Shown here one piece after another: positions 14,133-37,022 of a stretch of DNA of 44,517 bases (within the stretch, counting starts at the first letter, position 1; each line of letters begins with the position of its first letter). The DNA comes from Escherichia phage vB_EcoM_SHAK7858, in the sequence record OR594183; one strand, 5' to 3'. The notes under the pieces are model-generated. The model did no database searches and was not told the origin of the DNA. It saw only the letters and a program-made list of their open reading frames with translations. Made by a program: the position numbers and the translations under genes.

Positions 14133-14239
14133 GTAGTGTGCTAGAATAATTTTGCGCCTAGTGTCGCACACGAAAAGCGGGTGGTTCCCGTCTGGCGCAT
14201 TTCCTTTAACCAGTAACCTCTTAACCAAAGGATTAAAGA

Positions 14240-32393: not shown

Positions 32394-32621
32394 TTACTCG
32401 CCGTCGCCTTCTGTAAGGCTATCGTCTATTAATTCAAATTTACCGTTTGGGTGTTGAATAGCTTCTTGCCCGCAATGGTCGCAGACAACAAGTTTATCGA
32501 ACCCATCAAACTCGTCCCCGACTACGCAAGAAAGTACAAATTTATGTTTTGTGCACACTTCCTGCGATTCTCCGAAAATTGCTAGAAAACCTTTAGCTAT
32601 GGCTCCCGTTATTGTGTTCAT
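32394..32621 (-). CDS. Small zinc-ribbon-like protein (75 aa)
   Basis: Cys pairs CTKHK...C and CDHCG; first gene after the promoter at 32650-32678. Confidence 0.45.
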   Translation of the reverse strand: MNTITGAIAKGFLAIFGESQEVCTKHKFVLSCVVGDEFDGFDKLVVCDHCGQEAIQHPNGKFELIDDSLTEGDGE

Positions 32622-32649: not shown

Positions 32650-32678
32650 ACTATAATAGCGAACTATTCACATGTCAA
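32650..32678 (-). promoter_or_regulatory. Leftward promoter (TTGACA-N17-TATAGT) with embedded palindrome ATAATAG-N4-CTATTCA
   Basis: Read on the minus strand; palindrome at 32653-32670; part of the divergent control region next to the HTH gene. Confidence 0.5.
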
Positions 32679-32696
32679 TGGGCTTTTCTAAAATAA

Positions 32697-32742: not shown

Positions 32743-32958
32743 ATGCAACCATCTGAACTAGGTATCCGTGTAGAACAACGCCGTAAAGAACTCGGCATCT
32801 CCCAGCGCCGTTTGGCGGCCCTGACCGGCGTTTCCCAGGGCGCGATTAACCAACTGGCACTTGGAGTAACTCAGGACGTCCGCCCGGCAACGCTGTTCAA
32901 ACTGGCGGAAGTTCTGGAAGTAGACGCCAAGTGGCTGGCGTTAGGTGAAGGGGCTTAA
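32743..32958 (+). CDS. Cro/CI-type (XRE-family) helix-turn-helix DNA-binding protein
   Basis: Classic HTH LGISQRRLAALTGVSQGAINQL; strong SD; terminator downstream. Confidence 0.85.
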   Translation: MQPSELGIRVEQRRKELGISQRRLAALTGVSQGAINQLALGVTQDVRPATLFKLAEVLEVDAKWLALGEGA

Positions 32959-32975
32959 AGCCCCTTTCTTTTTAT
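32949..32975. terminator. Rho-independent terminator after the HTH gene
   Basis: aggggc-ttaa-gcccct followed by ttctttttat. Confidence 0.6.
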
Positions 32976-33286
32976 AGCAACTTATCGAGTTCTTCCAAAT
33001 TCTTAATAGTGTGTTGCACGTTCAGGTACTGAATCCAGGCGAGAAACCACGCACTTACAGGAAAACTTATAACAATAGTTATCGATATAATTAATTTGAA
33101 AAGGCACTTTATAATCTCTGCCAGCGTCATGTCTAAAATGTCTTTAAACTCCGCAAAAATCCCCGCTGCATACACACAAAAAGTCCACCAGTTGTTGCTT
33201 ACAGCGGAAACACATGTCAGGTATGACGGGCGGTATCCTGCCTTCACTGCTTTAAACGGGTTATCTATAAAATCGTAAATATTCAT
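32972..33286 (-). CDS. Hypothetical membrane protein (104 aa), AT-rich
   Basis: Hydrophobic helices; noticeably lower GC than flanking genes. Confidence 0.45.
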   Translation of the reverse strand: MNIYDFIDNPFKAVKAGYRPSYLTCVSAVSNNWWTFCVYAAGIFAEFKDILDMTLAEIIKCLFKLIISITIVISFPVSAWFLAWIQYLNVQHTIKNLEELDKLL

Positions 33287-35535
33287 TCCAAATCCTCCTC
33301 GGTCACTGTCAGCATTTCATTCGGTTCGTATATTGTCTTCGGAATCTTGTTATCTGTTATCATGGTGTTCAGTCTGTAACGGCCTGGGATTATCTGATTG
33401 TTTTCGTCAGTACCCGGAACAAGATACCCAGCCTCAACCATTTTCTTAATCTTCCCGCGTTCTATGGCTTCTTTGGAGTTAAACGCCTTTGCGTTGGGGT
33501 CAGACTGCGCGAGCTTATTCGCTGCGGATACCGTGATGCCCTCGTTGCCGTTGTAGGTCCCCTCCGCCAGTTCAAACGCCGCGAGTATCGTGGCCTCGGA
33601 ACTGTTGACGGCGTTCTCTATGGTTTTACGTACATTTTGTTTACCTTCGTTAGTTAACCCTTCTTCCCTCTCTTTCTCCTCGTCGGTCTTGAATGGCTCG
33701 AAGCCCCACGGCATCAATACAAGCGCCTTGTGCGGCTCAGGCAGGTCGAGGTTTACTATTGTGCCGTATTCCTCTGTGCTACCGAGGAACTCAACCGCGC
33801 GGTACTCTTTCGGCGGCGGTGCTTCACGGAACTGTACAGACTCCAGTACCATGCCAACCGTCTTCTGTTGCGGACCGTGCTTAAATTTAGAGTGGTATAC
33901 GTTTATCTGACGGTCGGTAGCGCGTTCGATTGTCAGTTCCACGTCGACACCCGCATACAATGCTCCACTGCCGCGGGCTTTCTTTCCGCCCTTCGGAGTA
34001 TGGTGAACGACACCGACAGCGGCTTTAGTTGCATCGCGCACTTCTTTCAGGATGGCGATAACTTTACCCATACCGATTGCCGTTGATGAACTGTTCTCGT
34101 CGAACTTATCAATCGTCAGGGCCAGCGTCTGGTTAAGGGTGTCGAAGGCAACCATGCCAATAGGTTCATCCCCTGCGGTTTCGCGCATCCTGCGGATTAG
34201 AGCTGGAATTTTTTTATCACCATGCGTAGCGAGTATTTCGCCCATATCGATGACATGTACATAATCTTTACCTTCCTCGCCATATTTAGCCGCGAGTGCA
34301 TCAATACGTGTTCGTGTAGCTGCACCACCCTCGCCGTCAATATAGAAATGGTGGCAACGTTGGGTGTCAGCCCCCGCAAACCGGTACCCGGCGGCGCTCA
34401 GGTACATCATCCCCAGCGTATAGAATGATTTGTACGTGCCGGATTCCCCGACAATATCCCAGATACAATCCGACGGCATGTACCCCTCAACGACGAAATC
34501 AGCCTTTACCGGTTCTGGTAACTCGTCCTCTTCTTCAAGGTCTTCCAGCGTGCAAGTTACAGGCTCCTCGTTCTCTGTGCGGTGCAGTTCTTCAATCTCT
34601 TCATCCGGTAAATCAGGCAGAGCCGCACGAATGCTGTTAATACTGATAGGTTGCTTGTCTACGTTAAGCTCGTCCGGCAGGCCGCACATACGCAGGGCCA
34701 AATGCTGTCGGCGGTTAAGCTCGGTGCAAGCGCCGTTGTTTGTATGCTGGCACACAAAGCGCACTTCTTTACCATCAAGCATGATGCTTGTGGAGCCTTT
34801 GCCTGTATGCAGATGTTCGTTAGGGCATGGGACTTCGTACCCGCGCCCGGAAGATAAAGCGTCAAGGCCAAGCTCGGCTTCGCAGAAATGCGCTATATCA
34901 GCATTAAGCCCATACTCATCGGCGGCAAGTGTCTTAACTTCACGTTTACTCAACCCCATCTCTTCGGCTTTCTTGATGTACCGCTCGGCACGGATAACAC
35001 GCCCTTCTGTAACCGTTATCTTTGACTCTCTATGTGGCAGATAGATAAGGCGGTTGCCGTCTTCCGTGCAGTGGTCACGCAAGGCTTCATCTATTTCTAA
35101 CTCTGCACAAATAGCCCGTTGGACCATCCACGCGTCGTTAGAGTTAAACGGCGTGCGAGCCGGAACCAGAACGCGGAAGGCGTAATCACCGTTTTTACAC
35201 ACATGCTGATGCGATGCCGTTGTATGCAGAATATTGAAGAACGGTGCGTTCTTGAATTTGCGGGTAAGGTCGCGGTACTGAGTACGGTTGAGATGGTCAA
35301 AATCGAACTTAACCACACTGTCTTCCAGGATAGCGTTTTTACGGCGACCCCCAACAGGCGCAATAGCTTTCTGCTTAATCTTGGCAGCGTCGTACTCTTC
35401 CTTAGACCACGACGGATCCACGGATAAACGCTTCGATGTATCGCAGACATACTCCACAAACTGCTCGAGCGGCATCTCACGCGCTACAGGGTTTTTATCG
35501 AATGTGTTGCGCAGCGTTGCAAAAACAATATTCAT
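33283..35535 (-). CDS. DNA primase / RecA-like replicative ATPase fusion
   Basis: N-terminal primase-like region with a Cys/His zinc-binding segment; C-terminal Walker A GESGTYKS, Walker B MVAFDTL and VVHHTPKGG. Confidence 0.75.
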   Translation of the reverse strand: MNIVFATLRNTFDKNPVAREMPLEQFVEYVCDTSKRLSVDPSWSKEEYDAAKIKQKAIAPVGGRRKNAILEDSVVKFDFDHLNRTQYRDLTRKFKNAPFFNILHTTASHQHVCKNGDYAFRVLVPARTPFNSNDAWMVQRAICAELEIDEALRDHCTEDGNRLIYLPHRESKITVTEGRVIRAERYIKKAEEMGLSKREVKTLAADEYGLNADIAHFCEAELGLDALSSGRGYEVPCPNEHLHTGKGSTSIMLDGKEVRFVCQHTNNGACTELNRRQHLALRMCGLPDELNVDKQPISINSIRAALPDLPDEEIEELHRTENEEPVTCTLEDLEEEDELPEPVKADFVVEGYMPSDCIWDIVGESGTYKSFYTLGMMYLSAAGYRFAGADTQRCHHFYIDGEGGAATRTRIDALAAKYGEEGKDYVHVIDMGEILATHGDKKIPALIRRMRETAGDEPIGMVAFDTLNQTLALTIDKFDENSSSTAIGMGKVIAILKEVRDATKAAVGVVHHTPKGGKKARGSGALYAGVDVELTIERATDRQINVYHSKFKHGPQQKTVGMVLESVQFREAPPPKEYRAVEFLGSTEEYGTIVNLDLPEPHKALVLMPWGFEPFKTDEEKEREEGLTNEGKQNVRKTIENAVNSSEATILAAFELAEGTYNGNEGITVSAANKLAQSDPNAKAFNSKEAIERGKIKKMVEAGYLVPGTDENNQIIPGRYRLNTMITDNKIPKTIYEPNEMLTVTEEDLE

Positions 35536-36836: not shown

Positions 36837-37022
36837 ATGTTTAAGAAGAGTCAGTTGGTTCGGAATAAATCCACCGGCGATTTATTTACGGTAATAGAGT
36901 CGGAGTTAATGTGGTTCGGTTTTGTAGAGGTTAATAGCGTAGTTGGGTTTGGTAAAGGGTTACTCCGTAAATGTGATTTAGAACTCATCGGCAACAATTT
37001 TAAATTCAAAGGGGCGAAGTGA
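36837..37022 (+). CDS. Hypothetical protein (61 aa), AT-rich
   Basis: ORF with SD agaggag; start chosen by spacing. Confidence 0.4.
   Translation: MFKKSQLVRNKSTGDLFTVIESELMWFGFVEVNSVVGFGKGLLRKCDLELIGNNFKFKGAK

Follow-up and report, generated by a model that had tools for sequence, protein, structure and literature searches.

Escherichia phage vB_EcoM_SHAK7858 (sequence record OR594183) carries, on its minus strand, a small gene for a protein of 104 amino acids, lying between a gene for an HTH regulator and the gene for the replicative helicase-primase. The window, by which we mean the whole stretch of 44,517 nucleotides that was analysed, shows 90-98% nucleotide identity over this region to Escherichia phages of the genus Kagunavirus (Guernseyvirinae). 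The closest record in the phage collection over 25 kb is that of vB_EcoS-22664BS2 (94%), and no identical record is present there. The genus comprises siphoviruses that are small and virulent and whose targets are surface glycans (PMC11990801). The initial annotation had placed the 104-aa gene between the HTH regulator and the primase, convergent to the former, and the ORF coordinates (32972..33286, minus strand) agree exactly with this placement. The features of the locus are as follows.

32743..32958, plus strand: gene for a Cro/DicA-like HTH regulator of 71 aa, the convergent left neighbour (Pfam HTH_3, E 3.9e-13; annotated as Cro or repressor in relatives)
32947..32971, plus strand: hairpin GAAGGGGCTTAAAGCCCCTTT followed by a T-run, predicted intrinsic terminator of the HTH gene, with the HTH stop codon in the loop (terminator scan, RNA folds)
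32972..33286, minus strand: coding sequence of the accessory membrane protein, 104 aa, with an ATG start and a TAA stop at 32972-32974 (phrog_2638, E 6.9e-33; homologues; dN/dS)
33029..33109, minus strand: robust predicted transmembrane helix, codons 60-86, with a near-invariant Pro76 in an F/Y-P motif (hydropathy; AlphaFold2)
33197..33286, minus strand: N-terminal motif, codons 1-30, MNIYDFI..P.KAV.AGYRPSYLTCVS (alignments A3 and A4)
33283..33286, minus strand: ATGA overlap of the 104-aa gene's ATG (33286-33284) with the helicase-primase TGA (33285-33283) (sequence and ORF coordinates)
33293..33300, minus strand: Shine-Dalgarno sequence GAGGAGGA for the 104-aa gene, inside the last primase codons (..T E E D L E *) (read from the sequence)
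33283..35535, minus strand: replicative helicase-primase gene, 750 aa, upstream in the same leftward transcription unit (phrog_3228, E 0; Pfam AAA_25, E 2e-20)

The ATGA overlap of the 104-aa gene with the primase gene is a sequence arrangement indicating translational coupling. With the ribosome-binding site also embedded in primase codons, both co-transcription and coupled translation would be expected, and the 104-aa gene is accordingly predicted to be the translationally coupled last cistron of the replication operon. The Shine-Dalgarno sequence at this junction is kept in the phages that carry cargo here (this phage, ST20 and K1G), and K1ind2, in which the position is empty, has GAGGAAGA at the same place. 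A sigma-70 consensus scan of the minus strand across the 3' part of the primase gene detected no promoter-like site upstream of the 104-aa gene, a verdict that refers to consensus matching only; the sole good promoter-like sites, which are divergent, lie at 32650-32694, beyond the HTH gene. An Rfam search of the gene region returned no RNA element. At its other end the gene abuts the hairpin at 32947-32967, which had been read as a terminator common to the HTH and 104-aa genes. The hairpin is indeed shared, folding as RNA with -17.3 kcal/mol on the plus strand and -12.7 kcal/mol on the minus strand, but by its sequence it is a proper intrinsic terminator for the HTH gene only, because the U-run is found on the plus strand (the HTH side) and the minus strand continues with UUCACCUAACG.

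The 104-aa gene is real and under purifying selection. Homologues were found by tblastn in 13 phage records, 11 of them from Kagunavirus, and pairwise dN/dS among the Kagunavirus alleles ranges from 0.10 to 0.39. The homologous proteins fall into 25 clusters at 90% identity, and a search among 1.84 billion proteins gave 39 clusters at 50% identity. The position of the start codon is fixed, because the N-terminus MNIYDF is conserved.

Base composition had been the first reason for regarding the gene as foreign, with a sliding-window GC and codon-usage calculation proposed as the check. The gene is certainly AT-rich relative to its neighbours: its GC content of 38.7%, versus 50.6% for the whole window, is the lowest of the 75 ORF-called genes (mean 49.5%, sd 4.4) and stands at the 0.35th percentile when ranked against every 315-nt sliding window (mean 50.5%, sd 4.1). 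The further step from low GC to lateral acquisition holds up less well, in that codon usage lies within the normal range and most of the GC deficit can be traced to the protein itself. From its amino acids and the genome-average codon usage, a GC content of 42.3% would be expected, and amino-acid composition (the residues responsible being Ile, Phe, Leu, Lys, Asn and Tyr) accounts for 7.2 of the 10.8 percentage points of the deficit, or about two thirds. After this correction the residual is -3.6 points (rank 15 of 75), while GC3 (45.7%) ranks 11th and codon-usage likelihood 14th among the 75 genes, both in the normal range for small genes. Homologues elsewhere likewise have a GC content 3-9 points below that of their surroundings. 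Because the low GC mostly follows from the amino acids of the protein, composition alone is weak evidence of a foreign origin; strong evidence for accessory status comes instead from the pattern of presence and absence among related sequences.

A second gene that had been singled out as AT-rich, at 36837-37022, is third lowest of the 75 genes (GC 39.5%). Its product of 61-64 aa (36828/36837-37022, plus strand) belongs to phrog_12538, with homologues in 57 phage records, most of them below 60% identity. As judged from these matches, the gene is more widely distributed than the 104-aa gene, yet very variable.

To follow the junction through the genus, an evenly spaced sample of 60 out of 116 matching related phage records was typed by record spans. 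The position between the terminator and the primase stop codon was empty in about 43 of the 60 (~72%), held a different gene of the K1G ORF39 type in about 7 (~12%) and held the 104-aa gene in about 7 (~10%); one record (BEU33) was rearranged and 2 were unresolved. A four-way alignment of the junction gave exact borders for this slot, the left one directly past the T-run of the terminator and the right one at the primase stop. The slot is filled with the 104-aa gene in this phage and in ST20. In K1ind2 it is empty, with the primase stop codon TAG only 3 nt off the terminator, a distance of 3-8 nt being found in K1ind2-type phages generally. The hairpin at 32947-32967 forms the left border of the slot and is present in all three states, including the empty one. 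The initial annotation had named a comparison of this junction in related genomes as the way to examine the accessory status of the gene, and the comparison bears that status out: the gene is absent from about 90% of the relatives, most of which have a precisely empty slot.

The alternative cargo, K1G ORF39, is a 198-bp gene (positions 1573-1770 of the K1G locus; insert GC 43%) that shares with the 104-aa gene the same insertion point, an ATGA overlap with the primase stop and the terminator hairpin as left border. Its product differs in being unrelated in sequence, 65 aa long and soluble, without a hydrophobic segment. Where they adjoin the terminator, the two cargo genes end in 10-16 nt that look alike (TTGCA[A/C]CTT...), and these similar 3' ends may be the trace of a recombination joint. 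A direct repeat of 8 nt, TTCCAAAT, found close to the two borders of the slot (33288-33295 and ~32993-33000), was also considered as a deletion or insertion joint and was rejected when the joint that it predicts proved to be missing in empty-slot phages.

Alleles of the 104-aa gene fall into three lineages with about 74% DNA identity, 63-67% protein identity and dS of 0.7-1.8, the flanks being 90-95% identical, and a central segment evolves fast between alleles. Three lineages at this dS are not what a recent arrival would leave, and the gene is, on this comparative evidence, best described as an old, exchangeable cargo. The slot itself is a three-state, recombination-tolerant site at the 3' end of the leftward replication operon.

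Several irregularities were noted in the sequences around the slot. In phage BEU33 (OM632667, a record flagged UNVERIFIED_ORG), positions 1924-2170 of the fetched locus hold a piece homologous to the 75-aa gene at 32394-32621, placed within the 3' end of the helicase-primase gene and preceded by a second copy of the primase C-terminus, so that the sequence has either been rearranged or is a chimera of the assembly. The helicase-primase gene (33283-35535, minus strand) is mosaic among relatives: its 3' 600 nt are 90-93% identical and its middle 82-88%, and the 5' 635 nt are 91-93% identical in Schulenburg and 22664BS2, the two relatives whose fetched locus extends that far. Near the locus, ST20 (MF153391) is about 77-96% identical to this phage, and its record has the opposite orientation.

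These observations bear on the earlier proposal that the gene is a moron, a term that in the sense of Juhala and Hendrix denotes an extra gene that separates two genes adjacent in relatives and that has a promoter and a terminator of its own. The first half of this description applies well: the 104-aa gene is an accessory gene in a variable junction, carried by some phages and missing, with exact borders, from the same junction in others. The second half does not, and it is highly improbable that we are dealing with a classical moron, that is, an autonomous and recently acquired foreign transcription unit whose low GC content reflects an outside origin. Such an origin would suit a gene with the lowest GC in the genome that occurs in only some relatives and adjoins a terminator hairpin. 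However, the ATG lies on the primase stop and the Shine-Dalgarno sequence within primase codons, and no promoter of its own was seen (in a consensus scan only). The single hairpin is that of the HTH gene, which already exists in empty-slot phages and carries no U-run on the cargo strand. The GC criterion is equivocal, with the lowest rank of 75 offset by the expected 42.3% and by ordinary ranks for GC3 (11/75) and codon usage (14/75), the amino-acid composition taking up 7.2 of the 10.8 points. Moreover, searches of 185,579 species-representative bacterial genomes and of 5,426 E. coli genomes found no close homologue, and the three Kagunavirus allele lineages, with dS of 0.7-1.8, are old.

By sequence, the 104-aa protein is a member of an already catalogued family of unknown function, PHROG 2638, which it matches with an E value of 6.9e-33, its residues 1-98 aligning with positions 2-96 of the 120-position profile; each of the 35 relatives in the alignment hits this PHROG and no other. 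The family comes with no annotated function, Pfam or NCBIfam model or solved structure. Searches with all 35 members found nothing above threshold in Pfam (E<=0.01) and NCBIfam, where the Pfam matches below threshold were spurious transmembrane ones (DUF4750, TatC), and no match in the PDB by sequence. The PADLOC-DB 2.0 models for defence and abortive-infection proteins gave no family at E<=1 for the 104-aa protein. A fold search with its model returned generic matches, the structural neighbours being long helical hairpins only, and a literature search yielded nothing on the gene or on PHROG 2638.

The initial annotation had described the product as a small hydrophobic membrane protein, and hydropathy gives one transmembrane helix in all 35 family members. 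The Kyte-Doolittle maximum of the 104-aa protein over 19 residues is 2.2, at residues 65-83; over 17 residues, within residues 55-92, the maximum is at least 1.3 in 35 of 35 members and at least 1.55 in 34 of 35, with a median of about 2.3. An AlphaFold2 model is all-helical (pLDDT 89.5) and places the transmembrane segment within a long helix at 55-103. A conserved hydrophobic helix long enough to cross the bilayer, as expected of an integral inner-membrane protein, is thus found in 35 of 35 members and is helical in the model, the localisation being a predicted one. The second hydrophobic stretch is less uniform. Segment 22-46 has transmembrane-like hydropathy in about 7 of the 35 members and bears on average about 2 positive and about 2 negative charges, and the middle helix (~22-52) is moderately amphipathic, with a hydrophobic moment of 0.42 versus 0.30 for shuffled sequences. 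On family averages over the 35 members, the loop leading into the transmembrane helix is acidic, with a net charge of -0.9, and the C-terminal tail basic (4.3 K+R).

Conservation is concentrated at the N-terminus. Alignment A3 has invariant residues I3, Y4, D5, F6, I7, P10, A13, V14, A16, G17, R19, P20, Y22, T24, C25, V26 and S27, and in alignment A4, which contains 35 distant members, G17 is still invariant and P10, Y18 and P20 are conserved in at least 90%. The family signature comprises the N-terminal F..P..AV..GY.PSYLDC(V/W)S, a D-M-T turn near residue 53, a transmembrane helix with (F/Y)-Pro76 and a basic tail. Together, the alignments and the model suggest an alpha-helical inner-membrane protein composed of an N-terminal motif of about 30 residues, an amphipathic helix at ~22-52, a transmembrane helix at ~60-86 and a basic C-terminal tail. 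Most likely, the chain forms a helical hairpin whose two termini face the cytoplasm; it may instead cross the membrane only once, because the second hydrophobic segment is transmembrane-like in only about 7 of the 35 members.

PHROG 2638 appears from these searches to be a rare family that is found in phage sequence only. No close relative of the 104-aa gene was detected in the 185,579 species-representative bacterial genomes, and no copy at the DNA level in the 5,426 complete E. coli genomes; the former search covered close relatives, alignment A4 of the distant members having diverged too far to be scanned by pattern. Two IMG/VR contigs from sample 3300045988 encode a protein identical to that of this phage. 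Beyond Kagunavirus, a member lies directly behind the helicase-primase gene of Jerseyvirus TS3, and others are present in Enterobacter phage Mulvp2 and in Dickeya jumbo phages. In a lambdoid contig the family member sits in the nin region, three genes past O and DnaB-type replication genes, and in another contig it is part of a pL-like operon that spans from a Dam methylase to an integrase. Several distant homologues are located on short contigs or among arrays of unannotated ORFs, and wherever the context can be read, the family member is a single small gene among densely packed early or accessory genes. A conserved partner gene was sought in a phiTE_015-family neighbour of distant homologues, a candidate that was dropped when the neighbouring proteins at two such loci (L016 and L017) turned out to be unrelated. 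Directly upstream of one distant homologue (P0028; locus L015, 1870-2160) lies a gene that weakly resembles the restriction-alleviation protein Lar in a Pfam match below threshold (E 2.6e-4; 21.6 bits versus a cut-off of 28.6), which hints that this neighbourhood may be an anti-restriction or accessory array.

The anatomy of the gene can be stated with considerable assurance: it is very probably an optional cargo of one gene that closes the leftward replication operon of a virulent Kagunavirus at its 3' end and encodes a small membrane protein. For its function, the initial annotation had named superinfection exclusion or abortive-infection-like activity; the most plausible candidate, by analogy, is superinfection exclusion at DNA entry, to which we assign a probability of roughly 0.3. 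Under this proposal the gene would be transcribed with the helicase-primase gene and translated by coupling to it, so that its product would be an early protein, the early expression alongside the primase being inferred from gene order. The protein would act at the inner membrane of an already infected cell and block a membrane step of a competing infection, and exclusion would protect the cell that the phage already occupies. Any such benefit must be conditional, because about 90% of kagunaviruses do without the gene.

Small membrane proteins that bring about superinfection exclusion at DNA entry include T4 Imm, P22 SieA and HK97 gp15. The last of these, annotated as a moron product in NC_002167, is reportedly a superinfection-exclusion moron (Cumby et al. 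2012, J Bacteriol 194:5012, as listed in PMC13190303). The 104-aa protein, as predicted, resembles it in that both are small, helical and located in the inner membrane, and in that each is the product of an optional gene of an E. coli siphovirus, set between two conserved genes and next to a terminator. It differs in that gp15 has 62 aa, its transmembrane helix being N-terminal and its C-terminal part soluble, and is encoded in the late tail operon of a temperate phage with its own annotated terminator; gp15 is expressed from the prophage. The two proteins have no sequence relationship (hhalign probability 2.4%). A second parallel is offered by T4 Imm (and Sp), which are small early membrane proteins of a virulent phage that act at the inner membrane of the infected cell. 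The 104-aa protein would likewise be a small membrane protein of a virulent phage, made early as far as gene order indicates, but T4 imm is fixed in its phage group, whereas the 104-aa gene occurs in about 10% of its genus. No PHROG 2638 member matches any Pfam family above threshold, and Pfam presumably holds models for T4 Imm and SieB. Across these comparisons (Pfam and NCBIfam with the 35 members, PADLOC, and hhalign against HK97 gp15), no homology to known exclusion or defence families was found.

The same early, optional and membrane-located anatomy could also belong to an effector of counter-defence or host takeover, which would neutralise a component of the host inner membrane for instance a defence system embedded in the membrane, a protease, or a protein of division or transport. 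The strongly conserved N-terminal motif is of a size to lie in the cytoplasm and suggests a specific protein partner, and the central segment that varies among alleles would suit an arms race, such that this alternative may fit the conserved motif and the fast-evolving middle almost as well as exclusion does. The family is patchily spread over unrelated phage types, as is typical of anti-defence accessory genes. Its case is helped by the existence of membrane-bound defences that act at genome injection (PMC13190303). Set against it are the lack of similarity to any characterised anti-defence protein and the report that BASEL kagunaviruses, none of them shown here to be a carrier of the gene, are broadly sensitive to restriction-modification and Old. 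We consider counter-defence slightly less probable than exclusion.

Two further functions are suggested by the shape of the protein and by its neighbour, respectively, and both are less probable. A small two-helix hairpin with a weakly hydrophobic first helix and a charged C-terminal tail formally resembles class II holins, and the size of the 104-aa protein, its possible two-helix hairpin, the Ser/Thr/Cys/Ala/Gly-rich first helix of this allele (YLTCVSAVSNNWWTFCVYAAGIF) and the charged C-terminal tail would agree with a holin-like protein, of pinholin or antiholin type, that modulates membrane integrity or lysis timing. It is improbable that this is its role, given that the gene lies in the replication operon at a distance from the lysis genes, that holin, endolysin and spanin genes are annotated elsewhere in ST20, that none of the 35 members matches a Pfam holin family, that about 90% of relatives lack the gene and that the first helix of most alleles contains several charges. 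The proximity to replication genes would alternatively point to a membrane tether comparable to phi29 p16.7 or p1, made alongside the helicase-primase and anchoring replication to the membrane. The gene is translationally coupled to the helicase-primase gene here, and family members lie directly after the primase gene in Jerseyvirus TS3 and within three genes of a DnaB-type helicase in the lambdoid contig. Yet the Kagunavirus and Jerseyvirus contexts are homologous and hence not independent, and other family members are located away from recognised replication genes. Most kagunaviruses, moreover, replicate with the slot empty or holding an unrelated soluble cargo, and DNA-binding features are not visible in the protein, all of which makes a tether very unlikely.

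Returning to superinfection exclusion as the preferred function, a broader and equally tentative proposal can be made for the family. PHROG 2638 might represent a previously unrecognised class of early phage membrane effectors, which would use the N-terminal motif F..P..AV..GY.PSYLDCVS to bind a particular machine at the membrane, candidates being the DNA-entry route of incoming siphovirus genomes and a membrane-embedded host defence, and whose gene would be a plug-in moving between virulent, temperate and jumbo phages and borrowing the translation signals of operon ends. If a membrane step of infection or a membrane-bound defence is indeed blocked, a new sequence family would join the few characterised phage membrane effectors, and close kagunaviruses with the slot empty, with the 104-aa gene or with an unrelated gene would provide a natural test system. 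The slot is also of practical use, as a site where insertions are naturally tolerated and translation signals are already in place, in a small phage genus that has been described as attractive for synthetic biology (PMC11990801). At present, the 104-aa gene is one more uncharacterised accessory ORF, an ordinary accessory gene.

Two minor observations were made elsewhere in the window. An Rfam match to the int-alpA RNA (RF02996) at 14151-14215 (plus strand), in the structural or late part of the genome, scored 36.6 bits against a gathering threshold of 35.8 (E 4.7e-4). The HTH gene and the leftward 75-aa gene (32394-32621) are separated by 120 nt, where the promoter-like sites at 32650-32694 stand back to back, with TTGACA-17-TATAGT (11 of 12 matches) on the minus strand and TTCACA-16-TAAAAT on the plus strand. 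By sequence this region resembles a divergent control region of the Cro type, the phage itself being regarded as virulent.
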